DNA of 64,000 nt, taken from Raja brachyura (taxonomy: Eukaryota). The notes below the pieces were generated by a model. The model had not been told where the DNA came from. It did no database searches and worked only from the letters and a program-made list of their open reading frames with translations. Below are positions 914-59,639 of this stretch, piece after piece. The first letter of the stretch is position 1; every line of letters starts with the position of its first letter. The translations under genes were made by a program, and so were the position numbers. The stretch spans positions 28,458,001 through 28,522,000 of the forward strand of contig OY740806.1 in assembly GCA_963514005.1 (NCBI GenBank), read 5' to 3'.

Positions 914-1277
914 TAAGACACAAAATGCTGGAGTAACTCAGCAGGTCAGGCAGCATCTCTGGGGAAAAGGAACAGGTGACGTTTCGGGTCGAGCCCCTCC
1001 TTCAGACTGAGAATCAGGGGAGAGGGAAACTAGAGGTATGAAATGGAACAGAACAAATCAGAGCAGGCACTGATGACTCGGGATGACTCCATAATGGTCC
1101 ATTGTTGGCTGGTGAAGTGATAACAAATGGAGAAGTCTGTTCGTTATCCTGACTCTCAGTCTGAAGAATGGTTTCAACCCGAAATGTCACCGATTCCTTT
1201 TATCCAGAGATGCTGCCTGACCGGCGAAGTTACTCCAGCTTTTTGTGCTTATCTTCAATGTAAACCAGCATCTGTAC
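914..1277. mobile_element. Penelope-derived short element: two terminal-repeat copies in tail-out inverted arrangement
   Basis: Left arm 914-1010 (gacacaaaatgctggagtaactcagc...ttcagactga) is the approximate reverse complement of right arm 1156-1250. The same repeat terminates the Penelope fragments at 14445-14943 and 54812-55670. Confidence 0.8.
1156..1193 (+). ncRNA. Minimal type I hammerhead ribozyme motif in Penelope terminal repeat
   Basis: tcagt-CTGAAGA(1161-1167)-atggtttcaaccc-GAAA(1181-1184)-tGTC-accga. Core boxes intact; helix I tcagt/accga pairs 4 of 5. Confidence 0.6.
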
Positions 1278-1589
1278 TTGCACAATCCTTCCTGCACATC
1301 AGTTATCAATGCACATTTCAAATGCCTGCAAGTATTTATTTGTCATTGAAGGATTGCTTGAGGCAGAAATATATTATTAGCTCACAGAACATCCAAATGT
1401 AAATATCTACTTTATATCAATATCCATTTTATATGCAAGCGCAGTTATAGTGAAGTATTTAGAAAACTGGTCCTTGACTAATGAGGTGCAATCTTGTTCT
1501 GCAAGCTAATAATATATTTCTGCCTCAAGTAATCTGTCAATGACAAATAAACACCTATAGGCATTTGAAATGTACATTGATAAGTGATA

Positions 1590-1860
1590 ATAACAGCTTC
1601 AAGTTCTTAGGCATCCATATCACCAGCAACCTAACCCGATCCCTTCACAATGATGCAGTGTTTAAGAAAGTGAATCGGCGTATTTAAAAAATAACCTGCT
1701 GGAGGAACTCAGCGAGTCAGGTAGTATCTGTGGAGGGAAAAGGACAGATGACGTTTCAGATCGTGCCATTCTTCACGACTTTACCTTTCTTGACCATGAG
1801 GATTCCATCATGCATCTACAGATATGAGATAAAGAGTATTCAATGCATCTCAGCCTGGTA
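1590..1860 (+). mobile_element. Old Rex1/Babar LINE fragment, 5' part (host of the younger Rex insertion)
   Basis: Decayed RT C-terminal coding (SFKFLGIHITSNLT). It breaks at cagcctggta and resumes at ~5013 (tgacaactcc). It also contains a Penelope-repeat fragment at ~1690-1778. Confidence 0.65.
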
Positions 1861-2026
1861 TTCAATTCAATTCAATTCAAGTTTAATGTCATTGCACAAA
1901 TACAAGTATAGGTACAACGAAATGCAGTTTAGCGTCGTTCCTAGTGATAGCGATATAGAAAAATAAATACAGAGTGCAGTGGTAGCAATATGGAAAATAA
2001 ATAAATACAGGGTACAGACAAATCTA

Positions 2027-5012
2027 TCAGCTGGGCTCCGAGTTCAGCAGTCGGATGGTGTAGTTGAAGAAGCTGTTCTTCGTCCTACTGGTGCGGGACC
2101 TGAGGCTCCTGTACCGCCTCCCTGATGGGAGGAGGGCAAACAGTCCATGATTAGGGTGTGAGGGGTCCTTGATGATCTTCCCGGCCCGCTTCAGGCACCG
2201 TTTTCGGTGGAGGGCATCCAAGGCAGGGAGCGGGGCACCGATGATGTACTGGGCGGTTTTCACCACCCGTTGTAGTGCCTTCCTGTCTGCCACGGTGCAA
2301 CTGCTGTACCATACCGTAAAGCAGGTGGTCAGGATGCTTTCGATGGTGCAGCGGTAGAAGTTCGTCAGGATCTGGGGGGACAGGTGGGCTTTTTTGAGCC
2401 TCCTCAGAAAGTAAAGGCGCTGCTGTGCCTTTTTGATTAGCTTTGAGGTGTTGAGGGACCAGGACAGATCCTCCGAGATGTGTACCCCGAGGAATTTGTA
2501 GTTGGAGACCCGCTCCACCTCAGTCCCGTTTATATGGATGGGGGTGTGTCTGCCCCCTCTGTTCTTCCGAAAGTCAACAATTATTTCCTTCGTCTTCTGG
2601 GAGTTGAGGACGAGGTTATTGTTGGCACACCAGGTAGTCAGGTGCTGGACCTCCTCCCTGTAGGCTGATTCGTCATTATCACTGATCAGTCCTACCACCG
2701 TGGTGTCATCGGCAAATTTTATGACGGCGTTGGAGCCATACTTGGGGATGCAGTCATGCGTGAAGAGGGAGTAGAGGAGAGGGCTGAGCACACAGCCCTG
2801 TGGCACGCCGGTGTTCAGTGTTATAGTGGAGGAGGTGAGGTTGTTGACCCTAACAGACTGTGGTCTGTTAGTGAGGAAATCCAGTGTCCAATTGCAGAGG
2901 CAGGTGGAGATGCCAAGACCGCTGAGTTTGGTGATCAAGCTAGCGGGTATGACAGTGTTAAAGGCAGAGCTGAAGTCAATAAACAGCAGCCTGATGTAGG
3001 TGTTGTTGCTGTCCAGGTGGGTCAGGGCAGAGTGTAGGGCCGTCGATATGGCGTCCTCTGTAGACCTGTTTGACCGGTAGGCAAATTGGTGGTAGTCCAG
3101 TGTGGGGGGGAGGCTGGCTTTGAGGTGAGCCAGGATCAGCCGCTCAAAGCACTTAGCGATGACAGGGGTGAGTGCCACTGGCCGGTAGTCGTTGAGACTC
3201 CCTGTCGCTGATTGTTTGGGCACTGGCACAATGGTAAATGTCTTGAGGCAAGTGGGGACGACACCCTGGGCCAGTGACAGATTGAAAATGTCAGTGAGGA
3301 CCAGGGATAGTTGTCCGGCACATGCCCTGAGCACCCGCCCGGGGATGCCATCGGGGCCGGCAGCTTTGTGCTCATTCACCTTGCTCAGTGCGTCTTGTAC
3401 AGCAGAGGTGGAGAGACTGAGGGGTTGTTCATTCGGGGGTGGAGCAACTTTGATGGCGGGAGTTTTGTTGTCCCGGTCAAAGCGAGCATAGAAGTGGTTT
3501 AGCTCATTAGGAAGGGAGGCGTTGTCCGGGGGGGGGGGGGTGTTGATTTTATGGTAGTCGGCAATGGACTTAATTCCTTGCCACATGCGCCTGGGGTCGG
3601 AGTTGTTTCGGAAATGCTCCTCAATCCGCTGTTTGTGATTGAGTTTAGCATTCCTAATTCCCTTTTTCAGATTGGCCCTGGATGAGCTGTATCCCTCAGC
3701 GTCGCCAGATTTAAAAGCGGCGTCTCGAGCCTTCAGCAGGAGTCTGACCTCCCTGCTCATCCACGGCTTCTGATTAGGGAAGGTCTTTATCACTTTATGG
3801 GTGGTGACGTTATCAGTGCAGAATTTTATGTAGTCCAGAACAGTTGAGGTGTATGAATTTATGTCCACTTGGGAGTTAAAGGTGGCCTGGGTGGCAAACA
3901 GACTCCAGTCTGTTTGCTGAAACTGTTCCTGTAAGACAGAGACAGCCCCCTCAGGCCAGACCTTCACTGTCCTCGCGGTAGGTTTCACACGTCTGATCAG
4001 AGGTGTGTATTTGGGGAGCAGGAACAAAGAGAGGTGATCAGACTGTCCCAGGTGGGGGAGGGGAAGGGCTTTGTATGCTTCAGTAATATTAGTATATACT
4101 AGGTCCAAAATATTGTTACGTCTGGTTGGGCAGGAGACAGGATTTGAGTATAGGAGCAGGGAGGTTCTACTGCAGTTGTACAGGGTTTTGGTGAGGCCAC
4201 ACCTGGAGTACTGCGTACAGTTTTGGTCTCCAAATCTGAGGAAAGACATCCTTGCCATGGAGGGGGTACAGAGAAGATTCACCAGACTGATTCCTGGGAT
4301 GTCAGGACTTTCATATGAGGAAAGATTGGATAGACTCGGTTTGTACTCGATGGAATTTAGAAGATTGAGGGGGGATCTTATAGAAACCTACAAAATTCTT
4401 AAGGGGTTGGACAAGCTAGATGCTGGAAGATTGTTCCCGATGTTGGGGGAGTCCAGAACAAGGGGTCACAGTCTAAGGATAAGGGGGAATTCCTTTAGGA
4501 CCGAAATGAGGAAAACATTCTTTACACAGAGAGTGGTGAGTCTCTGGAATTCTCTGCCACAGAAGGTAGTTGAGGCCAGTTCATTGGCTATATTTAAGAG
4601 GGCGTTAGATGTGGCACTTGTGGCTAAAGGGATCAGGGGGTATGGAGAGAAGGCAGGTACGGGATACTGAGTTGGATGATCAGCCATGATCACATTGAAT
4701 GGCGGTGCAGGCTCGAAGGGCCGAATGGCCTACTCCTGCACCTATTTTCTATGTTTCTATGTTGGTGGAATCTGGGGAGCACAGTTTTTAGGTTGGAGTG
4801 GTTAAAATCGCCAGCAACAATAAAAGCCCCCTCTGGGTGGGCAGTTAGTTGTTTGCTGATAGCAGCTTGCAGCTCTTCCATTGCAAGCCTGGCATTAGCG
4901 TCCGGGGGTACATAGACTGCAGTGATGACAGTCGATGTGAATTCCCTGGGCAGATAGAAGGGCCTGCACTTTAACATCAGGTATTCTAGGTCAGCAGAGC
5001 AGTGGCTACCTG
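2027..5012 (-). pseudogene. Rex1/Babar APE endonuclease-reverse transcriptase ORF (4760-5012 joined to 2027-4139), disrupted by CR1 and 5'-truncated
   Basis: Removing 4140-4759 joins LPRFHQH to VSCPTRRNN in frame. No stops are visible in the retained portion. Confidence 0.9.
4140..4759 (+). mobile_element. CR1-clade LINE 3' end (5'-truncated, young)
   Basis: ORF reads LVRPHLEYCVQFWSP...RRLRGDLIETYKI...TRGHSL, typical of the CR1 ORF2 C-terminus. Ends in a (TTTCTATG)n tail. Confidence 0.95.
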
Positions 5013-5460
5013 TATGACAACTCCTCTGCTCTTGACCACCTGAACCTGCAGAGTGGTGAACATAGCCCAGTCCATCACAGGCTCATCACTTCCTTTCATC
5101 CAGTCCATTTTCTTGGTGCAAGTATCATCAAGGATGCCTGCCACCCTGGCCATTCCCTTTTCCCACTTCTACCTTATTGGAGAGGATACAGGAGCTTGAA
5201 AGCCCAGACATTTAGACTTAAGAACAACTTCTTTCCAACCTATCACCTCTCTCTGAGATGCTGTCACATACACTTACTATTAACAGTACTGCAATCAGTT
5301 ATTCTGTTATTGCATTTTTTTATACAACCATGCACCATTAAACTGCTGCTTTTCACATGTCATTATATTGTATCTATACCGTTTATTCTGTAAGCCTTGG
5401 GCGCATGAGGAATATCATTGCTTCCTGGTGCATATGACACCAAACTAAAGCTGAATTACT
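5013..5460 (+). mobile_element. Old Rex1/Babar LINE fragment, 3' part
   Basis: Decayed LQRVVNIAQSITG / IIKDACHPGHSLF / FRLKNNFFPT coding followed by 3'UTR. Confidence 0.7.
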
Positions 5461-5684
5461 AAGAAATACAAATGACGAGGGAAGCAATTGTGATGTGCAT
5501 TTGGGGCACATTGGAGTAGAGAACAGTGAGAGCAGATTATATAGTCCTTCAAACTTGCTGGGTAACTCAATACCCAGCACGATGGCTAATCATCCCAGAA
5601 GGAACAGGAACTAGATTAGGTCACTCAGCGCAGGAGCAATGCGTGATTCCATAATGTACAAGGTCCACCTTACCTTATAAGGAC

Positions 5685-5995
5685 ATAGAATAAGGTTATT
5701 TGGCCCATCTGGTCCATGCTGGGTTCAAGGCAAGCAATTTTATTCATCCCAAGACCCTCCTTTTTTCCCTGTGCCGTATTCCAATAAATGCCCATCAACT
5801 TCCCTCTGATTCTTTTTGGCCATTAATCTACACAAAGGGTTAATTTACAGTGGACAATTCACCACCGATACATTTTCAGGATATGGATGGGAACCAGAGC
5901 AACCAAAGGAAACCCAAGCATCAAGAACAAAACTCGTAAAATTGCAGCAGAGAGCACTGAAGGCTCGGATCGAACCTAAGTGTGCGGGCCTGCGG
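5685..5995 (-). mobile_element. Decayed HE1/V-SINE
   Basis: Reverse-complement similarity to the HE1 copies at 17787 and 35577. Confidence 0.5.
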
Positions 5996-6999
5996 GGTGA
6001 TGGATTTACAAAGTGGCAATTCATGTCTATGATATAATGTAAAAGAGAAACAGCTGGTGGATTTCTTTCAAAGGATAAGTTTCTCCTCAAAGGTTAAATC
6101 ACAGATTTGAGATTTTTTTTTGCTCCACTATAATACAAAATCAAAATACCACACAAGATAACAAGTAAGGAGGGCAAAATTGAAAGCGTTGTGTAGGACA
6201 GATGTTGCGCACATACACTCACTCTGGCGATGTATGCCTGGAACACATTGTCATGGATGGTGGTGGGCGCAGATATGATAGCGGCATTTAGTAGGTGTTT
6301 GGATAGGCACATTAATATGCAGGATATGGATCATGTGCAGTCAGAGGAGATTAAGTTAAATTTGGAATCATGTTCTGCACTGCATTATGGGCAGAAGAGC
6401 CTGGTCCTGTGCTGTACTGTTTTATTACTAAAGCAAAAAACACTGGAGATGTACAACAGCCCAGTGGAGGAAGATGAGAGTTAACGTTCCAGGGACAAAT
6501 GGATGAACTGTGATCCTCTCTCCACAGCTGCTGCCTGACCTATTTTTATTTTCGTTCTCTGTTGACGTATAGCGAGTCTTAGCACAGCTCGTTAATCAGG
6601 TACCCTAGATCCTACAGCAATTAACTGCCTCAGCACTAACATCGTGACATTTATCTTCTCTGATATATAAAGATAAATCCAACCTACCTTTTTCAGGTCA
6701 GTTAAGTGAGACAATTGGATTGCACGCCGTGAACTTATCTTCAAGCCAGAAGAATTGTTCAGGAACAACAGGGCATTTAACCTCAAATCCAAAAAGAAAC
6801 AGCAGCCAGGATTTCCATCAGATTTTCCCATTTTCATGCTGATTCGATTCTGCAGGATATTGAGAGGGTGCAGTTGAAAAATCAGAACATCATCAGTCCC
6901 ATTTTTATACACTTCTTTTTTTTTTTGTGCCCCAAAATTCTGGGAGAAAATGAGCTGCCTTGACTCCGATTCAGACTGCAGAAATTAAGCACAGCCTTA

Positions 7000-7225
7000 G
7001 TGGCCTGTCCCACTTTCACGACCTAATTCACAACCTTTTTTACTCGTGGACATTTTTCATCGTGTTGAAAAACGTCCCGACCTACTTAATCCCACGAGTA
7101 CCTACGACTAGCATCACGACCTGCTATGACCTACCTACGACCTTGTGACGACCATGCTGCGAGTATGAGAAAAGGGCAAACTCTGCAGCAGTCGTGAATT
7201 AGGTCGAGAAGGTGGGATAGGCCCT
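7000..7225. mobile_element. PIF/Harbinger-like MITE
   Basis: TIRs ggcctgtcccactttcacgacctaattc / gaattaggtcgagaaggtgggataggccc. TTA on both flanks (6997-6999, 7226-7228). Internal acgacc repeats. Confidence 0.75.
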
Positions 7226-7751
7226 TTACCTGATACAACAACCAATCAATCAGTGGGAGTAAAATGCCGACGCAAGGAATTGGAGATGCTGGTTTACAAA
7301 TATAGACACTAAGTCAAACAGGGATTTATTTAAGATAGTTAATCTTTCACTGATCACTGCCTTAGTAGCAGCAGAACCCATCAGGAGTGAGTTAATCCTC
7401 ATTATAAACACTTTCACCTGCAGTATTGTGTGGATCATTAAAAGTTAACTGCTTCTGTTTCAAGCTCAGAATTTTGTTCAGAATCTAGAAAGTTGGGTTA
7501 AGAAGATTATTCACATTTTGAACCTTCGAATTATGCTGCAAGTACCTCTCATAGACCTTTTACAACAAAGTTCTCCTTGGATTATGATGTGACATTAAAG
7601 GAGCCTTAACTTCTACCTCTGTGTTAATATAAAGCTTCTTTTTTGCATTACAAAGTAACAGTTGTATTTATAAATCCTCTATCACAAGCTCAGTGCATGC
7701 CAAGGATTACCGGCCAAGTAATACATGAAATGACAGAGCCAATCAGCAGAG

Positions 7752-8000
7752 AAACAGAAGATGGACACAAAATGTTGGAGTAACTCAGAAGGTCAGGCAG
7801 CATCTCTGGAGAAAGATAATAGATGACGTTTCAAGTCGAGACCCTTTTGCGGACTGCGAAACTCTCAATCTGAAGAAAGGGTCTCAACCCGAAACGTCAC
7901 CTATTCCTTCTCTCCAGAGATGCTGCCTGGTCCGCTGAGTTGCTCCAGCATTTTGTGTCAATTTTCGGTGTAAACCAGCATCTGCCGTTCCTTTCAACAC
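7752..8000. mobile_element. Penelope-derived inverted pair of terminal repeats
   Basis: Arms ~7763-7856 and ~7866-7960 are approximate reverse complements. Confidence 0.8.
7866..7903 (+). ncRNA. Minimal hammerhead ribozyme motif (best-preserved core)
   Basis: CTGAAGA(7870-7876)-aa-gggt-ctca-accc-GAAA(7891-7894)-CGTC(7895-7898). Palindromic ACGT helix III; helix I is weak in this copy. Confidence 0.6.
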
Positions 8001-8095
8001 AGCACAGAAACAGACCCTTGCCAACAAAGTTGCTTAACTCAGCTAATCCCACTTGCTGGCACTTGATCCACATCCCTTCAAACATTTCCTATATA

Positions 8096-9708
8096 CAGTG
8101 GCTTGCAAAAGTTTTCATACCCCTTAAACTTTTCCACATTTTGTCACGTTACAACCACAAACGTAAATGTATTTTATTGGGATTTTATGTGACAGACCAA
8201 CACAAAGTGGTGCATAATTGTGAAATGGAAGGAAAATAATACATGGTTTCCAAATTTTATTACAAATAAAAAACTGAAAAGTGTGGCGTGCAAAAGTATT
8301 CCACCCCCCTGATTCAATACTTTGTAGAACCACCTTTCGCTGCAATTACAGCTGCAAGTCTTTTGGGGTATGTCTCTACCAGCTTTGCACATCTAGAGAC
8401 AGAAATTTCTGCCCATTCTTCTTCGCAAAATAGCTCAAGCTCAGTCAGATTGGATGGAGAGCCTGTGAACAGCAATTTTCAAGTCTTGCCAGAGATTCTC
8501 AATTGGAGTTAGGTCTGGACTCTGACTGGGCCATTCTAACACATGAATATGCTTTGATCTAAGCCATTCCATTGTAGCTCTGGCTGTATGTTTAGGGTCG
8601 TTGTCCTGCTGGAAGGTGAACCTCCGCCCCAGTCTCAAGCCTTTTGCAGACTCTAACAGGTTTTCTTCCAAGATTGCCCTGTATTTGGCTCCATCCATCT
8701 TCCCATCAACTCTGACCAGCTTCCCTGTCCCTGCTGAAGAAAAGCATCCCCACAGCATGATGCTGCCACCACGTTTCACAGTGAGGATGGTGTGTTCAGG
8801 GTGATGTGCAGTGTTAGTTTTCCGCCACACATAACGTTTTGCATTTAGACCAAAAACTTCAATTTTGGTCTCATCAGACCAGAGCACCTTCCTCCACATG
8901 TTTGCTGTGTCCCCCACATGGCTTGTGGCAAACTGCAAACGGGACTTCTTATGGCTTTGTTTCAACAATGGCTTTTTTCTTGCCACTCTTCCATAAAGGC
9001 CCGATTTGTGGAGTGCACGACTAATAGTTGTCCTGTGGACAGATTCTCCCACCTGAGCTGTGGATCTCTGCAGCTCCTCCAGAGTTACCATGGGCCTCTT
9101 GGCTGCTTCTCTGATCAATGCTCTCCTTGCCCAGCCTGTCAGTTTAGGTGGACGGTCATGTCTTGGTAGGTTTGCAGTTGTGCCATACTCTTTCCATTTT
9201 CGGATGATGGATTGAATAGTGTTCCGTGAGATGTTCAAAGCTTGGGATACTTTTTTTATAACCTAACCCTGCTTTAAACTTCTCCACAACTTTATCCCTG
9301 ACCTGTCTGGTGTGTTCCTTGGGCTTCATGATGCCGTTTATTCACTAATGTTCACTAACAAACCTCTGAGGCCTTCACAGAACAGCTGTATTTATACTGA
9401 GATTAGATTACACACAAGTGGACTCTATTTACTAATTAGGTGACTTCTGAAGGCAATTGATTGCACTGGATTTTATTTAGGGGTATCAGAGTAAAGGGGG
9501 CTGAATACTTTTGCACACCACACTTTTCAGTTTTTTATTTGTAAAAAAATTTGAAAACCATGTATCATTTTCCTTCCACTTCACAATTATGCGCCACTTT
9601 GTGTTGGTCTATCACATAAAATCCCAATAAAATACATTTACGTTTGTGGTTGTAACGTGACAAAATGTGGAAAAGTTCAAGGGGTATGAAAACCTTTGCA
9701 AGCCACTG
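8096..9708 (-). mobile_element. Full-length Tc1 (IR/DR-type) DNA transposon
   Basis: ~215-bp TIRs starting CAGTGGCTTGCAAA. TA target duplication (8094-8095, 9709-9710). Inner direct repeat caaaagtattc. Inserted into a CR1 3' remnant. Confidence 0.97.
8314..9329 (-). pseudogene. Tc1 DD34E transposase, frameshifted
   Basis: MKPKEHTRQ start at 9329; WSDETK, QQDNDPKH, SPDLTPIE with 34 residues between D and E. Frameshifts near 9250 and 8460; stop at 8314-8316. Confidence 0.93.
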
Positions 9709-10199
9709 TATATCATCTTTTAAATGCCATAATTGTACCCGCCTCTCCCATTTCCAGTGGCATCTCGTTCCACATACCCATCACCCTCAATTTCTCACCT
9801 GTGTGAAAGATTTGACCCTCAGGTTCCTTTTGAAACTTCCCCACTCACCGTAAACCTATGCCCTTTAAAGTCATAGTCATACTTTCAATGTGCAGGTATG
9901 GTTGTAATGTAGTAAATGCAGTAGTAGATGTGTGCACTGCAAGCTTCCATGAGCAGTGATGGTGATTCGGTACTTTTTGTAGTTAATGTGATGGTGAATA
10001 TTGGCCAGGATATTGGAGATAAGTAAAATTAATATCCTTCAGAAGCACTAATAATGCCTCTCCAAATCATCATCCAAAAGACATCACTTGTGGTACTCCT
10101 TTACATGAAGCTTTGATTTTTTTTCCATTAAAGTTCCAGGAGCAGAATATGAATGTTACTCATTCTGCCACAGTAATGAAGATGCAACACAGTAATCAG

Positions 10200-10478: not shown

Positions 10479-11556
10479 CCGGAAGTGGCGGCGCTGCTTG
10501 GCAGCTGCGGCTCACCTGCAGTCCGTCTATCTTTTATTTTATTTTTGTCTTCGTGCCTGTTTTTAGGGGTTATTTTTGGTTTGTTAGGTTGTGTATGTGT
10601 GGGGGGGGAGGGTGGGAGAAACGGGGTTTTAGTCTCTTCCTTCGGGGGGGGATGCAACTTTTCTTGTCGTGTCCCCCGACACCGTCTCCGTCTGTGCTGA
10701 GGCCCTAATGGCAGAGCTGGCGGCCTCCAGCTTCCAGCGGCGGCGGCACGGCTTTCGGAGCTTCAGCGGCGACCTGGCTCCCTCTGAGCTGCGGTGCTCC
10801 AGCGGTGACCTGGCTTCAGGGATGCGGTGCTCCAGTGGCGTTCCGGCGGCGACCTGGCTCCCTCTGAGCTGCGGTGCTCCAGCGGCGACCTGGCTTCGGG
10901 GATGCGGTGCTCCAGTGGCGTTCCGGCGGCGACCTGGCTCCCTCTGAGCTGCGGCGCTCCAGCGGTGACCTGGCTTTCGGGAGCTGCGGTGCTCCAGCGG
11001 CGACCTGGCTTTCGGGAGCTGCGGTGCTCCAGCGGCGGCCTGGCCTTCGGGAGCTGCGATGCTCCAGCTGCGACCTGGTTTCGGAGCTGCGGTGCTCCAG
11101 CGGCGGCATGGCTTTCGGGAGCTGCGGTGCTCCAGCGGCGGCCTGGCTTTCGGGAGCTCGGTGCTCCAGCGGCGACCTGGCTTCGGGGCTGCGGTGCTCC
11201 AGCGACGTTCCAGCAGCGGGCCCTGTGGCGGTGTTCCGGTGTTCCGGCGACAGCGGTGGCGGCAGCCCAGTTTCGGAGGCTCGGCCGCGGGCCTGGTGGA
11301 CGGCAGCGGTGGCGGCGGCCTGGATCTCCTCAGCGCAAAGGGAGAATAAGGATGGAAGAAGAAAGAGACTCTAAGACTTTTGCCTTCCACCACAGTGAGG
11401 AGGTGTTTGGTGAACTCACTGTGGTGGATGTTAATTTTGTGTTTATTGTGTGGTTTTGTTATTTTTATATATGTATGACTGCAGGCACGAAATTTTGTTC
11501 AGACCGAAAGGTCTGAATGACAATAAAGGCTATTCATTCATTCATTCATTCATTCA
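10479..11556 (+). mobile_element. GC-rich non-autonomous retroposon with central VNTR and (ATTC)n tail
   Basis: Inserted into a CR1 remnant. Starts ccggaagtggcggcg and ends aatgacaataaaggct(attc)n. No transposon coding motifs. Confidence 0.8.
10755..11215 (+). repeat. GC-rich VNTR with ~30-40 bp units (gagctgcggtgctccagcggcgacctggct...)
   Basis: About a dozen degenerate tandem units, with a higher-order repeat in 10770-10960. Confidence 0.95.
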
Positions 11557-11687
11557 CCTCAAGGCTCTGGCCTCTAGTTCTTGATTCCCCTACTTTAGGA
11601 AAAAGTCACTATGCACTCACTCGTTACATGTCCCATTAGTTACTGTAAAATAAGAACATTTAATTTATTTATTCATTAGGCAATATA

Positions 11688-12713: not shown

Positions 12714-12983
12714 TATACCCTGTAATTTAACTTAGATTGACATCATCTAATTTTCCAACTGATTGAACAAATTCCATGTAAATGGATTTGAATGTAAATT
12801 AATCATTGCTATTACTTTTACTCATGGGCCAGTTTTTGGCCACCAGGAAGTAATCCGATAATTGACAGGTTCACAGGTCTAGGTCAGAACATGAAACTCA
12901 GGTTTTGCCTCACACTGAACAAACCTTAGGTTGCGAGCTACTGCAAACATTACCTCCACAAACGGAGTTTGGACTTAATCAAA

Positions 12984-13930: not shown

Positions 13931-14059
13931 AGCAATCTGAAAAGCACCAATTTCATTCCTGATTCATTGGTTATCCCTGTATCAGCAATGTCAATTTTCC
14001 AGGTTAAAACGTGAACATTTAAACAACAGATATCCTGAAAGAAAAACGTTGCAGATATT

Positions 14060-40690: not shown

Positions 40691-40699
40691 ATGTTATCA

Positions 40700-49665: not shown

Positions 49666-50684
49666 CAACCAACATCTCAAAAGCAGTCTATTTTACATTG
49701 TCATACGTGGAAGTTTGCTGTGAGCAAGTTGAATGCTGCAATTACACTTGACAATATGCTTGTAGATTCTATTCTTGTGATCTGTGGCACCCCTCCTCAG
49801 ATTGTGATATCTTACTTGCAGGGAAAATTAATTTCCCCCAACAATAAGAAAACCTGTACAACAAATAAGACTGAACAATTAGCCGTAGAACTTATCAAGA
49901 TGTTATGCCTTATTGATATTTCAATGTCCCCTGCCACTTTGGCCAGTTAACTGAGATATAGGTGGATTACACTTACTTTGAGTAAGCTCTAACAGAAAGA
50001 AATATGTGCCTAGCTGTTGAGGGTCAGACCCAGGTGAACAAGGGAATGAGCTTGAGGAGATGAACCATCTATTGCATTTCCAATATCTGGCTAACGTACA
50101 AATCTCTCACAATGCTTGTCATTTTTCATTCTTGAAGCTCTGAAGATCATGCAACTATTTCACCCAAAGCAAATAAATCATCTTAATTAATTGCTTTTGC
50201 CAGAGAAAATTGCCTGGTAATGTTATTTGGTCTTATTTTGTTGAATTAGCAGAAATGTGCTTTGTATCTGCACTGATAGCTCCGCACTCCTGGGATAATA
50301 ATTATTGAACAGGAATGAACGTTCCCCTGGCAACTCGGCACTTGAAATGTTGCATTGCATTCTGCATCCTAGGTTTGAATGATGTTGAACAGATGAGGCT
50401 AACTTAAAACACTCTAGGAAACAAATGCCACAGCTTTCCAACTGGAGAGTAATCCTATATACCATTAAACAATGATGATCAAATGAACCAGCTGCTCTGA
50501 ATTATAATTGACTTTGCATGACTAATGTAGGCACACTTAACGAGATGAACACATGCAGAGCCCTGGAGACCTCATCTGGACGACAATGCATACATCACGG
50601 TTAGAACGCTGTCACTTTCACTTAGGCAGTAAATCATACTGGAGTGAAGCTTTAATGAGAGTGGCATGGAGGAAAAGAAGTAAA

Positions 50685-51222
50685 AAACACTGCGGGATGA
50701 ACTCACTGGGTCAGACAGTATCTGTGGAGGAAAAGACAGATGATATTTCAGGTCAGGTTACTTCTTCAGACTGTTGGAGTTATGCCCCTGTACCACTTAG
50801 GAAACCTGAACAGAAACCTCTGGAGACTTTGCGCCCCACCCAAGGTTTCCGTGCGGTTCCCGGAGGTTTTTGTCAGTCTCCCTAATGGTCGAAAGTGGTT
50901 TCCGCTTCTTCTATGTTCCGGCGATTATTTCAAAAAATTGATAAAACCTCCGGGAACCTGACAAAAACCTCCGGGAACCTCCGGGCGCAGTCTCCAGAGG
51001 TCTCTGTTCAGGTTTACTAAGTGGGACAGGGGCATATGGCAAAGTTTGCAAGGCGCCTCACCCACTCTTTTTCAGATTCCTCCCCCTACTCCTTCAGTCT
51101 GAAGAAGGGTCCCGGCCTGAAATAATGGCGTCCATTCCTACCACAGATACTGCCTGATTTGCCGAATTCCTCCAGCACTTTGAGTTTTGCACCAGATTCC
51201 AGCATCTGTAGTCACTTGTGGC
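50685..51222. mobile_element. Penelope terminal-repeat inverted pair hosting a MITE
   Basis: Minus arm 50685-50773 (cagtCTGAAGAagtaacctgacctGAAAtatc) and plus arm 51093-51222 (CTGAAGAagggtcccggcctGAAA). Confidence 0.75.
50782..51035. mobile_element. Harbinger-like MITE
   Basis: ~45-bp TIRs atgcccctgtaccacttaggaaacctgaacag / ctgttcaggtttactaagtgggacaggggcat. The terminus resembles the MITE at 7000-7225; TSD unclear. Confidence 0.75.
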
Positions 51223-54200
51223 TCCAGGAAAAGAAACAGCTCTGACTTGGCTAACCTAGCAGTGGAGACAGGGTCTAGTTCTATGAATCGCAAGAACATC
51301 AAAATATGCACTGGCCCCAAAAGCAGAAATCAAATGGGAAAGAGAGGTTTCAACTGACAAAGAGCAAAGTTCTAAAATGTCGACAAGTCCGAGTTCAGTT
51401 CGCAAGCAAGCCTGATTTGTTCCGGGTATTCTGCAAGCCATGTTGATATTTCCTGAACATAAAACTGAAAACAGCATGATAAATCCTGTTCATAAAAAAG
51501 TCAAGAGTTTTTTTATAAAAAAGAAAGACCCAAGTATCCCATCTCTCTATTCTGCTAAGAAGGCCTATTAGAGTTTTAGCAGTTAAGCTTGCTGACAAAT
51601 ATATTAGATAGCTTGGATTACAGGCATCTCTGTGCAAAGGCAGTGTGTGATTTACTCAAACAAAAATCTATTACTGAAATACATGCAAAGCAATAGAACA
51701 TTTATTAGGCTTATAGTACAAAAATTCTGATGTGTGCTAAACAACAGAAATGAGCCTGCATTCAACACTTTTAATATAATGCGATCTTTCAAGATGTTTA
51801 ATGGGATTCCAGTAAACAAATTTTAACAGCCCCACAAAGAAACACAGATGAATAAATGTTCAGGTCAAGAGCACTGCCGAGAAATTGGACTGGTTTGCAC
51901 GTGCAGTTGACAAAAACATTGTGGATAAAAGCAGTTTCCTTTGGGTTGGATCACTGGGCATCATATCTGGATCAATGAGTGGCATTAGAAAATGGGCCAC
52001 AGTCACTTCCAAGTCTGAATCCCCTTCGCAATACTGATGTGGCCCAGCATCAGGCACTGAGCTCATGATCCCATCTCTGTGAATGCCAACATGAACTGGT
52101 GTATAAATACCAAGCAGCAGATCCTTCAGAAATTCAGACACAAAATGAAAATTGACAACACAAGGAACAACAGATACTGGAATCTTGAGCAAAATACAAA
52201 GTGCTACAGTAACCCAGCGGGTCAGGCAATGTCTGTGGAGGAATTAAACAGCCGATGTTTCGTGACATAAATGGACGTTCCTCAGAGTGATCTCTATGTT
52301 TAACGCCCAGCTTGGTCCGAAAGTTGTCATTGCTCTGACTTATGCAGAGGCTCCCTCAAGAATGGCTGGAATTTTACAGAAGCATCACAGTCTGGGTTGC
52401 TGCTCCTTCTGAATAGTGTAGGGCTGGGACCTGTGTAACAACCCCTCAAATGCTTCACTGATGCAATGTTCATGGAAGAAAGAGACTGGTGTTGAAACAT
52501 TGCAAGGGAACATATGTAATTGTTGATGCAGTGAACACAGAGAAAGGCATTTCCCAATTTACTGATTGGAGTAGAGGGAAGAAAGATAGAAAATAAAAAT
52601 GGGGATGGGGCAATAGCAAGTGATAGGTGGATACAGGTGGGGGTGTGATTGGCAGATGGGCTAAGTAAGTGTTACAGAACTAAAGAATCACGCAACTTCA
52701 TCTCCGACAGAGATTTAGTTCTATACAGCCAACATTTACAGTGGGTTAGGTGGAGAGGCCAGTTATGGCCAAAGGATCCTAAAGCGTCAGGGAGTCAGTT
52801 GAGTTGCTGTTAACGTTGGGTCACATTAACTTGTAGATCTGTCGTCGTCCCCGAACTGGACAAATGGACAACCTGGCCACAGAAAGGAGTGAACATCAGC
52901 AGTAGGACGTTACAACTGTGGATCTGTAGGGAGCCTCTCTGGCAATAGCGAGAGGTAGCAATCAAAATTAGAGGGAATTTCGGACCAGTAATGTCTACGC
53001 CCAATAGTTGAGTATCTTCAGCGCAGAGGGGAATGTGAATTAAAGCCAAATATTAATAGACAATAGACAATAGGTGCAGGAGTAGGCCATTTGGCCCTTT
53101 GAGCCAGCACCACCATTCACTGATCATGGCTGATATTAACACTGATGTTTTGCTGATGTCATTTCAAAAAGCATATTGTAAGAAATTTGAAAATGCAAAA
53201 AGGTAAGAATGCAAGTCTTTATTTTGTTATATGTGGGTAATGTGTCAATGACAGTATTTTGCTGAGATAGTTTAAGCTGTTGATTACCCAGTCATCTATT
53301 CATTTCTCCTAAGAACAAAAATGTAGAATTAGGGACCCTAAGTAAATATGTCTGTACAATATTTAGATTTTATATTCAATTATACTGTTTAGATATAATT
53401 TTAGTATCAAATCACAAATCATTCAATGCGTAGAAGTCTTTTTTTACACCTGTCATCTGTAGGCTGCAAATATAATTATTTGTGATTTGAGTCTATACAT
53501 TTTTCTGCATGTACTTTCTTCATGTTAATGTTGCAGTTTGTTCAGTTCTGTGACAGCAGAAACATTCTGTGCCGACTCTCTCCCACATGATCACCACAAT
53601 GACACTGCACATTGGAAAGTATTCATTTGCCATTAGGGATCATAAAATAACCTTTCTCATGTCTTAAATAGATTTTGACTTGCATGAGAAATGCAACGTA
53701 TCTAACTTTCAATCTGACAGAATGTAAGTCCATTTCGTCAAACTGCTCCATAAACTTAGTTTGAATAGGCAAACTTAGCCTAATGTTCCGCAACGTTGCC
53801 AAACAGAATTTAATTTTCCCGATTGCCCATTATACAATTTATGGAAAATGCATATTTTTCTTGATGAGGTTGCAGGTTTTAAATTATACAATGAATCCGA
53901 GCCCAGTCAGAAAGGGCAGAAACAAAACGCTTCACTGACGGCATAAGGAACTGAAGATGCTGGACTTGAGCAAAGCACAAAATGCTGCAGGAACTCATCG
54001 GGTCAGGCAGCATCTGTAGAGGGAATGGATAGATGTTGTTTCGGGTCAGGACCTTTCTTCATAAGTTCGTAAGTCATGGGATCAGAAGTGGGCCATTCAG
54101 CCCATTGAGTCTACTCCGCCATTCAATCATGGCTGATCTATCTTTCCCTCTCAACCCCACTCTCCAGCCTTCTCCCCATAACCATTGACATCCTTGCTAT

Positions 54201-54811
54201 ATAAGTCCTTTATGGAGTGTAGATACCTTAGATCCAGGTTTAACCTGAACTGAGAGGCCTGGAATTGGAGCTGGAAGGCACTGGATGGTCAGAGCATTCA
54301 GAAACAAAGGTCGAGAATGGAAATATATGTTTAGGGCAGTAATTTAAGAAGATATTTACACAACTTCTTTCAAGTAACAGTGTCACAAAAATCCACAGAG
54401 AGTCACTGATAATGCCAGCTTCATATCCATTCAACCTCCCCTTTCCCCACATTAGAACAGGACAGTGGTATTCATGCCTATTCCAGCTTGATGAGGTTTC
54501 AGGATGTAAACAGCTTTAAGTGAAAGACTTGTGTTTAGACAGAAATCCTATTGATGATGAAGTAGTGCCAAAGCAGATTCTAATAGGAGCACTTCCATTA
54601 CAGAATCTGTGCAACATCCAATTCTCATCAGAAACCTGCTACATAAGCAATAGACTTCATTTCTGTGATGCAGCTCATATAATCATACAGTGCGGAAAAA
54701 GGACCAGTCCAACCAAGATGCCCCATCTAAGCTTGTATCTTTTGTGCACGCTTGGCCCATATCCCTCTTAACATTTCTTATCCATGTACCTGTCTAACTG
54801 CCCTTTAAATG

Positions 54812-55670
54812 TAGAAACAAGGAACTGCAGATGCTGGTTTACAAAAAATGACACAAACTGCTGGAGTAACTCAGCGGGTCAGGTAGCCTCTCTAGATAAC
54901 ATGGGTAGATGATGCCTAGGGTTGGGACCCTTCTTCAAACTGACGGTGTTGAGGGGTGGGGGAAGAAGCTGGAAGAGGTGAGGGGCAGACCAAATCCAGA
55001 CGGGTAATAGGTGGATACCAATGAGGACTTTTTTTTGACAGGCAGATGGTTGGACAAATGCCAGAGATGGAAAGATGAAGACATGAGATGCTGTTTCTCC
55101 AGTTTACATGTGACCTTACTCTGGCAATGGAAGAGGCCCAAGCCAGAAAGGTCAATATGGGAATGGGAAGTTAAAATGGTTAACAACTGGGAGATCCAAC
55201 AGGCCTTGGTGGGCCAAGTGTAATTGTTCAGCTAAACGGTCGTCGAGTCTACATTTGGTCTCACTAATGCACAGGAGGCCACTGGATGCAGCAAATGAGA
55301 TTATATGTGAAGCATGTGAACTCCTCATTCTCTCTGGAAGGACTGCTGGGGTCTCTAGATGGAGGTGAGGGGGTAGGTATAGGGATAGGTGTTACATCTC
55401 CTGCAGTTGCAGGGGAAAGTACTTGGGGAGGGGGTTGTTTGGAAGGAAGGGATGAGTGAACCAAGAAGTTATGGAGCGATGCGGAAAGGGGGGAGGATGG
55501 GAAGATATGACTGGTGCTGGAATCACTATGGAGGTGACAGTAATGTTGGATGTGGAGGTTATTGGTGAGAGGTGAGGACCAGGTAACTCTATCCCTTGTT
55601 CCATCTGGGGGGAAGGGCCGTGAAAGCAGAACTATGGATCAAGGAGGAGATATGCGTGAGAGATTCATGA
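54812..55670 (-). mobile_element. Penelope-like element 3' portion (GIY-YIG endonuclease, 3'UTR, terminal repeat)
   Basis: Decayed FTCFTYNLICCIQ, LCISETKCRLDDRLAEQL (YIGET-like) and HCQSKVTCKLEKQHLM. The terminal repeat at 54812-54943 carries a decayed hammerhead motif. Confidence 0.88.
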
Positions 55671-55679
55671 CAGAAGGGG

Positions 55680-55980
55680 ATTACATCACGTTTACTATCT
55701 CCGCTACATCATCGACTGCATCGGGGCTGCCTTCCGCAGAACCCGTTGATTTAATTAACTTTACCACGAACTTTCACCCTGCCCTCAAATTCACGCGGGC
55801 TATCTCTGACACCTCTCTCACCGTTCTTGATCTCTCTGTCTCCATTACGGGGAACATATTATCAACCGACATCAATGAGAAACCCATCGACACCCAGTTT
55901 CCTGGCCTGCACCTTATCCCACACTGCCACTTGCAAAGGCGCTATCCCATACTCCCAGTTTTTGTGTCTCAGCCACATTG
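55680..55980 (+). mobile_element. Penelope RT C-terminal fragment, inverted relative to its 3' portion
   Basis: ctccgctacatcatcgactgc (RYIDD-like), INFTTNFHPALKFT, LDLSVSI and TDINEKP. Confidence 0.85.
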
Positions 55981-56049
55981 ATGTGAACACTGATGTGTCA
56001 TCAATGAGAAACCCATCGACACCCAGTTTCGAGCCCCCATAGGTCCCGA

Positions 56050-57510
56050 TGTTATTGTAATCACAGTCACCAAGGTCGATGTCAGAAGATCCTTCAGGAG
56101 GGGGACCCCTTAGCGAGTGTCTGGACCTGATGTTCTCAAATCCTGCACAGACCAACTGGTTGGATATTTATGGACATCTTCAACCTCTCATTACTGTCTG
56201 CAGTTCCCACCTCCTCTGAAAGGGCTTTAATAATACCAGTTCTCATGAAGAGTACGGTGACATGTCTTGGTGACTGCCGACCAATGGCACTAACATCCAT
56301 GGTGATGAAGTGCTTTGAGAAGTTGGTGGTGGCACATATCAACTCCTACCTCAGCAAGATCCTGGACCAACTACGATTTGCCTACCACCCCAGTAGATCT
56401 ACGGGGATTGCAATCTCGCTAGCTCACAACTCAGCACTGGACCACGGATAATAAAAAGATATGCAGCAGGCTGTTGTTCATAGACTACAGCTTGGTGTTC
56501 AATACCATCATCCCCTCCAAACCTGTTACCAAGCTCACGGAAGGTCTCTGCACGTCCCTTTGCAACTCGATCCTTCGACTTCCTCATCAACAGAACAAAT
56601 CGGTAGAAATTGACAAAAGCAGCTCTTCCTCCTTGATAACCATCATCACAGGGGCACCTCCAGGCTGTGTGTTCAGCCCCCTGCTATACTCAATCTATAC
56701 CCATGACTGTGTAGCCGGACACAGTTCCAACTTCATCTTTAAGATATTTGCTATATTTACGAGGGAGTTAGATGTGGCCCTTGTGGCTAAAGGGATCAGG
56801 GAGTATGGAGAGAAGGCAGGTAAGGGATACTGAGTTGGATGATCAGCCATGATCATATTGAATGGCGGTGCAGGCTCGAAGGGCCGAATGGCCTACTCCT
56901 GCATCTACTTTCTATGTTTCTATGTATAAATTCGCTGACAACACCACCATCATTGGATGAATTATGGATGATGATGAATCCGTGCATAGGAGGGAGATCG
57001 ATCATCTGATTGAGAGGTGACAGAACAACAACCTGTGTTCATCTACAAATCAAATGGTGGAGAGAGTCACCAACTTCAAGATCCTGGGCGTGCATATCTC
57101 TGAAGATCTCTCCTGGACCCAGCACATTGATGCAATCATAAAGAAAGCCAAAACACTTCCAATTCCATAGTAGATTGAGGAGATTCTGTAGGTCAACAAA
57201 TACTCTCTTGAACATCTACAGGTGTACGGCAAAGGCATATTGACTGCTTGTGGCCTGGTTTGGCAACTCAAATGCCCACGAAATTCCAAAGGAGATTACA
57301 AAGAGTGGTGAACACAGCCTGGTCTATCATGGACACTGACCTCCTCACCATTGAATGGATCTATGAGTCGCTATCTCGAAAAGGCAGCCAGCGTCATCAA
57401 GGACCCATACCACCCTGGCTCTCATTTCACTCCTGCCATAAGGAAGATGGTTTTGGAGTCTGAAATCTGTAATGCACAGGTTCAGGAACTGCTTCTTCCA
57501 AACAACTATC
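56050..57510 (+). mobile_element. Decayed Rex1/Babar LINE with nested CR1
   Basis: DIFNLSL, RPMALTSMVMKCFEKL, FIDYS, GAPPGCVFSPLLYS and KFADNTT. Confidence 0.9.
56743..56925 (+). mobile_element. CR1 extreme 3' end, same subfamily as 4140-4759
   Basis: Nearly identical to 4585-4762, including the ttctatgtttctatgt tail. Confidence 0.93.
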
Positions 57511-59230
57511 ATGTTAAGTTTTTAGTTTTAGAGATACAGCTTTGAAACAGGCCCGTTGACCCACTTAGTGGGTCAACCTCAATCACCTTATCAATTCCCC
57601 ACCTCTGTAAGATGACCCATCAGCCTTCAGAGTTCCAAGGAATAAAGTCATAGCTTACCAAATCTCTCACTGTAGCTCAGGCACTTGAGTCCTGGCAACA
57701 TCCTCGTAAAAGTATTTCATATTTTAATTGGATACTAAAGATTCAGTTCCCCCTGAGATGTTTACATTCAATAGTTGGAACTATGGCTTCTTAATCTGCC
57801 TCCAATTGATAACTGACCACTCAATTTAAAGTTACTTAAAATAATTTAATTTCATGGTTCATATTCAAAAAATAGCGTGAACTGCCAAGTTTTCCCAGGG
57901 AGCTCATTTAAGGCAATGCCATTACATTAGGTAAAGCCAAAAGGTTTCTGTATGTTTGAGAAGTGTGCCTTCTCCTATAATAGCCGAGGAGCAAATCAAT
58001 TCAGCTCTAACCAAGTACTATTTAATGTAAGTATGTAATGGGTCGCTTTCACCATAAATATTTTGTTGCATTTGAAGTTTGATAATTCTAGAATCATTAC
58101 AAATTATATTGAAATCATGGACTTTAAAGAAAGCTTAAATAATGGAAATACAAATGACCACATTTTTCAGCTGCAAATTAGCTGCAGAGACACTGGGAAT
58201 ATATTAGGCTGAGGCTTTATGACCACTCTGAAATTGAACTAGAAAGCTGACAGAAAGAAGGAGCTATATGCACAGAAGGAACATTAATCAAATTACAGAT
58301 CATTACATTTGCCACATGGCAGAAACCTATGAGATTTGAATCCCAGCTAAATTTCAAGGAAATTTCTCTTCTGTACATTATCTCGAATAAAGAACAGCAT
58401 TCTCTATTTTTCTTTCTTGAAGCAAGCAACAGGCCTGCTAAGCTTCAGTTTAATTTCCATGCAATGCAAGTTTAATGTCTCTGCAAAAATACAGGCACAA
58501 TCATGGTTGATAATTAAACAGATTCCTATCAGTCGTGGTGGAGAGAAGCAGAAGGACTTCATGTTGGCAAAGACAACGTATAACTTCACATTTAGAAAGT
58601 TAATACATTAAACTAGTGAGTTGCCGAGTGTTTCTGCCTGTCTTAATCAGCCTAAAACTTAACGGCCTTGTTATTTTGGGTAATAATATACTTCTCATGA
58701 TTGTGACCCCCAACAGTTCCTGAGCAGTTAACCTTATCCTCTGATAGTAAATGAAGTTTTAATTGCATGACATCTGTCCACACATTCATAAATAGGTACA
58801 GATTAATAGGATTTGTCATTGTGCAGCAATTGTAAAGAGAGACACTGAATATTCCATGTATAGCTTGTCTCAAAAAGAAAGAATTCTATTATCTCCAAAG
58901 CTATTCAGTATCTTAATGTATAAAAAAACTTCCTTCATTGTTCTTTTAGCTCAGTGGGAGACCTCATTTTGTTGATAATTGTATTAAAGTTAATGTATTA
59001 AATTTACATGCAGTCATTACAGATGCACATCAACTATCGCATCACCAACTATAATCCTGCTGTCCTTGCCTACACGTCAATCAAGTTAATAAATGTGAGA
59101 TATTAACCATTGTATCCTTGCTCATTCAGGGGATACTTCTGCTGTCCTGACATAATTCAATATCCTCATTCTGTAGAGATACAATCAATGAGATCAGTCT
59201 GATCAAGGGTGCCAACCGAAAATGTCTTCT

Positions 59231-59507
59231 TAGTTTAAAGACACAGAGTGGAAACAGGCCCTTTGGCCCACCAAGTCTGCACCGATCAGTGATCTCCTAT
59301 AAACTAGTTCTATCCTACACGCTAGAAACAATTTACCAAAAGGCAATTAATCTACAAATCTGCACATCTTTGGAATGTGGGAGGAAACCGGAGCACCCAA
59401 TCACAGGGAGAATGTGCAAGCTATCAATCAGCACCCATAGTCAGGATCAAACCCGGGTCTTTGGCATTGTAAAGCAGCAATTCTACCGCTATGCCACTGT
59501 GCTGTCC
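59231..59507 (-). mobile_element. HE1/V-SINE inserted in a Penelope terminal repeat
   Basis: Reverse SINE flanked by cagtctgatcaagggtgccaaccgaaaatgtc and tctgtccattcc...actgcctgactcgctgagttcc. Confidence 0.85.
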
Positions 59508-59639
59508 TAAATCTGTCCATTCCGGCCATGAATACTGCCTGACTCGCTGAGTTCCTGCAGCAGTTTGTGTTTCCCTCTCATTCTGAGACTGAGTGGATCA
59601 CTATCTTGTTCATTATTCCAAATTCCACCCAAAGACGAG

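Follow-up and report, generated by a model that had tools for sequence, protein, structure and literature searches.

An abundant SINE-like repeat of Raja brachyura as the probable hammerhead-bearing end of a Penelope-like element

A short SINE-like repeat dispersed through 64,000 nt of Raja brachyura DNA (hereafter the window: GCA_963514005.1, contig OY740806.1, positions 28,458,001–28,522,000, forward strand) is very probably the 3′ end (pseudo-LTR) of a Penelope-like element (PLE) that belongs to a cartilaginous fish, encodes an endonuclease and is probably of the Neptune type; the inserted copies of this end have very probably decayed neutrally. The repeat unit consists of a minimal type I hammerhead, followed by ~60 nt and an optional tail of ~30 nt. 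Read in this way, the annotation of an abundant SINE-like repeat is corrected to a Penelope end, and the known PLE hammerhead motif is extended to a group of fishes that the 2014 survey (PMC4209133) did not include.

The repeat family and its hammerhead consensus

Using an iterated nhmmer profile (E < 0.01), we detected 26 repeat pieces in the window, 13 on each strand, which sum to 2832 bases (4.4% of the window); none was found in the reversed window, which served as a control. The family (D1, D2) also tops the list of direct repeats. Motif-like sequence was seen at all ten positions given by the initial annotation, eight of them inside profile matches; the 35121 site was missed by the family profile, and the 59199 site was matched by the first profile only (E = 0.023). 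An exact match to the two-box core pattern is present at a single site in the window (7870–7898) and in none of 100 shuffles. The motif had been placed on both strands, which holds for the orientation of the copies, but the reverse complement of the consensus has no hammerhead. The very high numbers proposed for the family were borne out, each of three public runs yielding >100,000 contigs that match at ≥80% likeness, although such contig totals are not copy numbers. The pieces, together with related features, are as follows.

699–814 (+): old copy with six core changes, in the left arm of an inverted duplication
892–1025 (−): copy without tail; hammerhead region 1005–978, A9 changed to G, helix II 3/4
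901–1297 (unstranded): single insertion comprising two divergent copies with ~135 nt between them, ends ± a few bases
1143–1294 (+): copy with tail; hammerhead region 1161–1188, core boxes intact, U-C replacing G10.1-C11.1
1679–1793 (−): old copy, right-arm partner of 699–814 and so not an independent insertion
7752–7872 (−): left arm of a divergent pair, without tail; core changed at three positions
7848–7998 (+): right arm of a divergent pair, with tail; hammerhead 7870–7898, core boxes intact, two extra bases ahead of helix II, helix I of 1 bp
13769–13873 (−): left arm of a divergent pair, with tail; 5′-truncated within the hammerhead
13843–13970 (+): right arm of a divergent pair; hammerhead mostly gone, no tail
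19949–19983 (−): tail-only piece, profile match
20247–20348 (−): decayed copy without tail
24862–24991 (+): decayed copy with four core changes
30569–30710 (+): copy with tail; core boxes intact (30585–30612), helix II 2/4, palindrome broken
35121–35149 (+): CUGAUGA variant with intact core boxes and mismatched 10.1–11.1; force-aligned, outside the profile matches, probably belonging to an older related family
36578–36657 (−): left arm of a divergent pair, with tail; no hammerhead
36675–36764 (+): right arm of a divergent pair; first box missing, no tail
37453–37599 (−): left arm of a divergent pair, without tail; core changed at three positions
37583–37628 (+): right arm of a divergent pair; tail only
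44727–44869 (−): decayed copy, profile match
50676–50788 (−): copy without tail; core boxes intact, helix II 1/4
51082–51230 (+): copy with tail; U16.1 changed, pyrimidine tract upstream
52151–52306 (−): copy with tail; core boxes intact, helix II gone
53934–54085 (−): copy with tail; C3 and U16.1 changed
59194–59226 (+): hammerhead half-copy with G8 and G12 changed; unrelated repeat after it
59509–59586 (+): downstream half, with 280 nt of another repeat inserted ahead of it; probably one copy together with 59194–59226, split by this insertion

The 50676–50788 and 51082–51230 copies point away from each other across a palindromic element. 5′ ends of copies in the window also fall at profile positions 31, 47, 52, 64, 73, 96, 111 and 121.

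The window consensus, itself a mixture of subfamilies, has the order CUGANGA, one extra base after A9, a 4-bp helix II with a 4-nt loop, closed by G10.1-C11.1, GAAA, the palindromic 15.2–16.2 and GUC. The match covers every one of the 11 core positions and, jointly with them, the extra base, the G10.1-C11.1 pair and the palindrome, at the site where PLE hammerheads lie. The palindrome lacks loop III and is C-G in the consensus, with 81% of helix III cells paired. The same helix II stem is visible in the loose-end consensuses of four public runs and has a probability of 0.8–0.94 in the folded consensus, in which both helix I pairs have a probability of ~0; the fold is no more stable than those of shuffles (z −0.17). 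The consensus departs from the published consensus line only in the length of helix I. The published descriptor allows a helix II of 3–7 bp closed by G10.1-C11.1 and asks for 3 bp or more in helix I (PMC4209133, Fig. S7), so that the consensus, with 4 and 2 bp, respectively, falls outside it. This bars the repeat from the strict descriptor class, but not from the wider group of PLE minimal hammerheads, because the same paper files 2-bp cases from Drosophila virilis and Culex under this kind. As a family feature, a 4-bp helix I with a bulge was weighed but rejected: the outer pair is kept in 7 of 16 copies, and the other added pair is lost, since 57–75% of depth has C at position 7902. The modelled dimer lies 8.3 kcal/mol above two folded monomers, compared with a median of 4.3 among 61 similar motifs in other animals, so that the ribozyme may have been weak in the source element as well. 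A search of the window against Rfam, suggested as a check, gave 10 matches at E ≤ 5, none to a hammerhead family.

The hammerhead core described initially is thus a property of the consensus, which has PLE minimal-hammerhead anatomy, but of no single copy in the window: among the 20 copies covering the core, the boxes CUGANGA and GAAANNUH are intact in six and the whole hammerhead in none. The two copies put forward for cleavage assays (1156–1193 and 7866–7903) do keep both core boxes, yet both are defective.

Association with Penelope-like elements

Fragments of PLE coding sequence were found at two loci.

14421–14627 (+): C-terminal fragment of a GIY-YIG endonuclease with stop codons; tblastn match to residues 379–445 of P0006 (44% identity, E = 4e−11 within the window)
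14628–14935 (+): pyrimidine-rich PLE 3′ region, closing with a C tract, then CAG
14936–14943 (+): first hammerhead box alone, the remainder of the repeat being absent
54804–54953 (−): 3′ end of a truncated PLE, with tail; G12, A14 and A15.1 changed
55082–55617 (−): PLE linker and GIY-YIG endonuclease fragments, frameshifted; tblastn matches to P0004–P0006 (best E = 1e−13 within the window)
55678–55970 (+): PLE reverse transcriptase fragment, inverted relative to the endonuclease part

The reverse transcriptase fragment is 65–69% identical to stingray PLE proteins, which contain both a PLE-type reverse transcriptase and a GIY-YIG endonuclease. The cysteine-rich linker before the endonuclease, given for Neptune and also for Nematis (PMC8557442), is present in the related P0006 and degraded in the window at 55414–55390. 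The relatives P0005 and P0006 have a weak Pfam GIY-YIG match (E ~1e−3), below the cut-off; eight frames of the PLE fragments in the window gave no Pfam match, and searching proteins with the 14451 piece brought up no candidate. The pyrimidine-rich region at 14628–14935 is 68% alike to the corresponding region upstream of 54938.

The motif had been described as directly following a GIY-YIG ORF and UTR at two loci. Endonuclease fragments do lie upstream at both, but the supposed ORFs are frameshifted fragments, none of which Pfam recognises. At the 14445 locus the GIY-YIG fragment is there, but the hammerhead is reduced to its first box, whereas at 54812–55670 the repeat does end a truncated PLE, but with the three core changes listed above for the 54910 copy. 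Neither a full-length PLE nor a tandem pseudo-LTR pair is present in the window, and the source element was not seen; nor was a host gene identified there, 14 further unexplained frames being without a Pfam match.

The arrangement of the copies points in the same direction. The tail is present in 12 of the 26 pieces and, in all six divergent pairs of the window, on exactly one arm, a pattern expected with a probability of ~0.02 if arms were independent. PLE insertions are drawn with the tail at one end only (PMC8557442, Fig. 2), and the one-arm tail is a PLE hallmark. Moreover, the 901–1297 pair is missing from the other arm of the local inverted duplication, and this empty site identifies the pair as one insertion. 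The proposal that the SINE-looking repeat is a Penelope terminus is thus upheld by endonuclease fragments at two loci, the one-arm tail and the empty site.

Judging from PLE biology, the PLE protein would prime reverse transcription on RNA that has not been cleaved, at either of two sites lying 3′ of the hammerhead, and early stops of reverse transcription would leave very many dispersed short ends in which the hammerhead is complete. For the anole PLE, insertion proceeds mainly from uncut RNA, and cleavage by its hammerhead requires the protein (PMC11167929). The hammerhead of the source element most likely cut a tandem precursor RNA after GUC, either as a dimer or helped by the PLE protein; after insertion, copies would decay neutrally and as a rule be inert.

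Alternatively, the short unit could be a non-autonomous PLE derivative (solo retrozyme- or SINE-like) whose own RNA, from which it multiplies, begins at the 5′ border of the hammerhead, the PLE protein being supplied in trans. We regard this as rather unlikely, but it can hold alongside the terminal origin, as both can be true. In three of four public runs, loose ends before position 7877 share just the last 11 bases of the 5′ side of the motif, beyond which the consensus is A/T-rich with a low agreement of 0.44; however, subfamily-specific upstream regions would by themselves blur such a consensus. Nine of the 13 copies examined have no strong upstream pyrimidine tract, and a preprint describes PLE-derived retrozymes in one chondrichthyan, but the scattered 5′ ends in the window fit random truncation. 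The repeat end joins back to its start in 22, 29, 8 and 2 contigs, with the intervening letters unread, whereas tandem arrays are absent from the window.

Decay of the inserted copies

In the window the repeat looks like a fossil and not like a working device. The initial annotation considered most copies mutated, and indeed every core-covering copy is damaged; even with helix I waived, no window copy passes the published descriptor. The core was expected to be better kept than its flanks, but conservation is 77% in the core (152/197) and 76% in the tail (1160/1528; p = 0.79). Two tail blocks are better kept (452/520, p = 0.002), which we do not read as selection because the same blocks drive detection. 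Helix II covariation was likewise looked for, and among 16 window copies, all of them old, no measure exceeded shuffles (71% of cells paired versus 73%; score 0.174 versus 0.197). C-to-T changes at 11.1 in several copies were rejected as covariation and attributed to CpG decay. The catalytic G12 itself decays at the pace of other CpGs: in four public runs it is changed in 12–13% of depth, compared with 9–12% and 14–18% for two tail CpG guanines. The depth sums behind these values come from contigs and are not copy counts; some differences went uncounted, and the table leaves out the first box and helix II. Folding of seven stretches from five copies produced none that beats shuffles or adopts the hammerhead form. 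Copies continue past the cut site instead of terminating there. Adjacent same-strand (tandem) copies are absent from the window, same-strand neighbours lying 0.8–17 kb apart, and the inverted pairs cannot dimerise in one RNA because their motifs sit on opposite strands. The conservation and covariation tests address selection on inserted copies and not the ribozyme activity of the source element.

The suggestion that copies cleave read-through transcripts is left unsupported, two of the three outcomes named beforehand as speaking against it having been observed (core no better conserved, no covariation). That a sizeable fraction of the dispersed copies are working ribozymes acting on host transcripts is accordingly very improbable. 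Each of three runs does contain ~2,000–3,000 pieces at 99% likeness or more and 11,000–14,000 at 95–99%; these young relatives make intact copies elsewhere likely, and the predicted helix II of the consensus would also favour activity. On the other hand, there is no intact copy in the window, helix I hardly forms in the folded consensus, and neither the inverted pairs nor the distant same-strand neighbours favour dimers. Furthermore, a published monomer remained uncut and dimers were weakly cut (PMC4209133), and the anole data are without RNA ends at the cut site (PMC11167929). If young copies did cut RNA in cells, a high-copy repeat would be tied to host transcript turnover.

Highly doubtful, too, is a more elaborate scenario in which cartilaginous fishes hold huge numbers of hammerheads that have a 2-bp helix I, escape the published descriptors and are switched on only by the PLE protein bound to the downstream stem or by splicing. 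In the latter case, an acceptor-like pyrimidine tract and CAG just before the core would provide helix I with another 5′ strand. By either route, expression of the element would lead young, intact copies in introns to cleave host pre-mRNA.

Finally, an accidental hammerhead likeness of a SINE or protein-binding sequence within the repeat can practically be dismissed: the lack of an Rfam hammerhead match, the shuffle-like folding of the consensus and its failure of the 3-bp helix I rule would fit it, but the joint match described above falls where PLE hammerheads sit. Moreover, among 123 matches of the same two boxes in metagenome contigs, taken without constraining helix II, 62 have a helix II of at least 4 bp after one extra base, compared with 3.1 in shuffles (maximum 9; 200 shuffles), and one such pair (L043, L044) flanks the reading frame of a PLE that includes a GIY-YIG domain. 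Among 120 of the ~2,100 loci of the metagenome pattern scan, none falls in the repeat family by profile.

Comparison with known systems

The literature searched, with most subscription papers and repeat databases outside its scope, contained no report of PLE hammerheads in cartilaginous fish, and none of these fish appears in Table S1 or Fig. S3 of Cervera and De la Pena 2014 (PMC4209133). That survey already published the motif type, the extra base, the loopless palindrome and the opposite-strand pairs, which are therefore nothing new here. Common to both are type I, CUGANGA with the extra base, G10.1-C11.1, the absence of a helix III loop, the palindromic 15.2–16.2, the GUC site and mostly solo, variable copies; its pairs lie on opposite strands 100–700 bp apart, and opposite-strand pairs likewise occur in the window. 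The difference lies in the 2-bp helix I, owing to which descriptor searches would overlook the repeat. The density of ~1 piece per 2.5 kb, counted in one window with decayed pieces included, looks far above the 4,000–9,000 intact motifs per genome reported there.

With the Neptune-clade PLEs and the general PLE insertion structure of Craig et al. 2021 (PMC8557442), the window shares a C-terminal GIY-YIG endonuclease, 5′ truncation, an inverted truncated copy at the 5′ end and a tail at one end, which in PLEs is optional and 30–40 bp long, and its relatives have the cysteine linker; the window has no full reading frame. Non-LTR retrozymes (bioRxiv 10.64898/2026.07.22.740005), known from one chondrichthyan genome, are also non-coding and PLE-derived with a type I hammerhead, but they are tandem units with a whole hammerhead each (mean 363 bp in the chondrichthyan), whereas copies in the window are solo or inverted and ~90–150 nt long; tandem units with whole hammerheads were not found in the window, and head-to-tail joints are few in public contigs.

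In the Poseidon element of the green anole, PAc (Frangieh et al. 2024, PMC11167929), the hammerhead likewise resides in the pseudo-LTR, copies pass the cut site, two 3′ ends correspond to the optional tail and insertion sites are A/T-rich. The proteins closest to the PLE of the window have a Neptune-type linker, unlike PAc. PAc is, moreover, an intact element whose hammerhead was shown to cleave with protein help, whereas its counterpart in the window consists of fragments.

Hammerhead anatomy of the repeat family

A profile seeded with six copies and iterated twice (threshold E<0.01) identified 26 pieces of the repeat, 13 per strand, accounting for 4.4% of the window, and the reversed window used as a control yielded no match at E<0.01. 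The motif was seen at all ten positions (10/10) listed in the initial annotation. At the start of the repeat consensus stands a hammerhead of the minimal type I, made up of CUGANGA, an extra A, helix II, GAAA and the GUC site; the numbering of residues and the part assigned to G12 are those of the cited hammerhead papers. Its helix II pairs GGGU with ACCC (4 bp) and is capped by a loop of 4 nt; positions 15.2-16.2 form a C-G palindrome. No hammerhead was matched in an Rfam search of the window or found in the reverse complement of the consensus.

Downstream of the hammerhead lie about 60 nt and then an optional tail, whose 20-nt block was found in 12 of the 26 pieces at a threshold reached by 1.4% of random stretches. 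In folds of the consensus and of tailed copies (7905-7995 and others), the start of the downstream region is predicted to pair with the tail block in a stem of 8-9 bp, which could mark a priming or protein-binding site; the overall folding of these sequences was not above that of shuffles.

Penelope origin and insertion structure

The proposal that the repeat is a terminus of a Penelope-like element (PLE) was borne out by endonuclease fragments upstream of the motif at two loci and by the one-sided tail in divergent pairs, that is, copies on opposite strands pointing away from each other. Fragment 55544-55978 matches six proteins of the stingray Hypanus sabinus (65-69% identity), pointing to a cartilaginous fish. 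Mapping these proteins back to the window delineated the first three of the following pieces:

14421-14627, + strand: PLE endonuclease C-terminus
55617-55082, - strand: PLE linker and endonuclease pieces
55678-55970, + strand: PLE reverse transcriptase piece, inverted relative to the rest
48181-48264, + strand: short C-terminal remnant of an endonuclease, the third such piece (within-window E 0.001), with no repeat hit downstream

At the 14421 and 55617 endonuclease loci a pyrimidine-rich region leads from the endonuclease into the motif. The Pfam match to GIY-YIG is weak and present in two of the six stingray proteins, and the domain was not recognised in a Pfam search with the window's own PLE frames. 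In the remnant 55082-55970, the plus-strand reverse transcriptase piece stands back to back with the minus-strand endonuclease part, an arrangement that we take to resemble a twin-priming inversion; a 32-nt stretch at 55999-56030 duplicates part of this remnant.

The tail block is present on exactly one arm in all six divergent pairs (6/6); the arms of one pair are separated by 300 nt containing another element and may stem from separate insertion events. Pair 901-1297 is a single insertion into an A/T-rich target, as seen from a local inverted duplication whose other arm is empty. The arms of this duplication (715-1762) span 715-1391 and 1495-1762 and are about 86% similar. The later PLE insertion went into the left arm; the right arm retains the unoccupied site, where 4-5 bp may be duplicated. 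Inverted truncated copies and a 30-40 bp tail on one side are described for PLEs in PMC8557442; inverted copies and a one-sided tail are common to those elements and the repeat. A palindromic, MITE-like element of about 250 nt (50781-51040) lies between two repeat copies. A second abundant family, of ~280 nt, occurs at 59227-59508 and about a dozen further sites, one copy interrupting a hammerhead repeat near its cut site. Other elements in the window are:

2027-4387, - strand: open non-LTR reverse transcriptase frame, 786 codons
4690-5082: endonuclease piece accompanying that frame
near 4400-4760: another element, inserted beside that frame
8091-9713: DNA transposon of Tc1/mariner type, with 225-nt inverted ends (94% complementary)
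8441-9262: transposase frame within it, 273 codons
10757-11203: G+C-rich tandem array, units of 35 and 80 nt
39525-43303, - strand: successive reverse transcriptase and tyrosine-recombinase-like frames, probably a DIRS-type retrotransposon

Decay of the inserted copies

The half-core at 14936 and eight coreless pieces aside, twenty stretches span the core: 18 of the profile hits, together with 35121 and 59199. All 11 core positions are kept in six of them, and the helices in none of these six. Both copies put forward for cleavage assays (1161 and 7870) turned out to be defective. The descriptor of PMC4209133 (Fig. S7), with helix I waived, retrieved no site in the window and one site in each of 5 of 60 shuffles; the consensus satisfies the descriptor only when helix I is relaxed to 2 bp. 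Neighbouring copies on the same strand are separated by 0.8-17 kb, and inverted pairs cannot form a dimer within one transcript.

Neither expected signature of constraint was recovered. Identity to the consensus is 152/197 in the core, 97/144 in helix II and 1160/1528 in the next 70 nt, so that the core is not better conserved than the tail (p=0.79), and when 16 core regions were aligned with MAFFT, no pairing measure exceeded that of the shuffles. Hammerhead structure scores are above those of slid controls solely because the consensus already has the structure. In four public runs aligned to the 7845-8005 copy (103,659, 104,345, 118,888 and 12,060 contigs), G12, which lies within a CpG, is A in 11.9-13.3% of depth and two tail CpG guanines are changed in 9.1-12.3% and 14.2-18.5%, these being summed contig depths rather than copy counts, with some differences uncounted and the first box and helix II outside the table. 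Loose-end consensuses from these runs share this helix II; their loops vary, but the stem has no paired change. The inserted copies show no sign of selection.

RNA processing and relation to known hammerheads

The anatomy and position of the hammerhead, its insertion structure and its decay can be read directly from the window. As to processing, PMC4209133 reports weak cleavage for the dimer of a minimal hammerhead and none for its monomer. According to PMC11167929, the hammerhead of an anole PLE cuts only with the element's own protein and is dispensable for insertion in vitro; the main template is uncut RNA, and none of the RNA reads terminates at the cut site. Reverse transcription may likewise begin here on uncut RNA, at one of two sites 3' of the hammerhead, and its early stop would scatter short ends carrying the whole motif. 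The extension of copies through the cut site fits reverse transcription of uncut RNA.

Four copies carry a splice-acceptor-like pyrimidine tract (80-84%) and a CAG a single base upstream of the hammerhead core:

14900-14935: tract and CAG
51064-51098: tract and CAG
1006-1040: tract and CAG
54939-54973: tract and CAG

Since an intron of Drosophila virilis Penelope extends up to the helix I 5' strand (PMC4209133), splicing at these sites could, by analogy, restore the short helix I of the repeat.

A scan of metagenome contigs with the two boxes fixed and helix II free gave 123 matches in 120 of ~2,100 loci, none belonging to the window's family. At least four helix II pairs follow one extra base in 62 of the 123 (shuffle mean 3.1), and the architecture of two boxes and helix II is real. 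A PLE frame of 784 codons, with a GIY-YIG domain, lies between two of the matches. Helix I reaches at least 3 bp in 53 of 61 comparable motifs, its first pair being fixed by the search pattern, which places the 2 bp of the window's family at the short end; the dimer modelled for this family is predicted to be less favourable than the median of the 61. The loci also include several large families of minimal hammerheads with helix II of 6-7 bp in host DNA, some of them as opposite-strand pairs (L056, L069, L092). In a tandem PLE array at locus L043, a 494-codon frame (2003-3487, - strand) lies between the hammerhead and the reverse transcriptase-endonuclease frame; it had no hit in Pfam, and a few of its residues seem to us reminiscent of SGNH esterase.

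For PLE hammerheads, PMC4209133 had already described in 2014 the extra base and the palindrome as well as dispersal as solo copies and as pairs on opposite strands; its Table S1 and Fig. S3 list no cartilaginous fish. In the literature searched we found no report of such PLE hammerheads in this group, and the supplements of a 2026 preprint (bioRxiv 10.64898/2026.07.22.740005), which describes PLE-derived retrozymes in one chondrichthyan, may include the window's family. The repeat falls outside the strict descriptor class because its helix I is short (2 bp); its hammerhead is a further member of the known PLE minimal kind.
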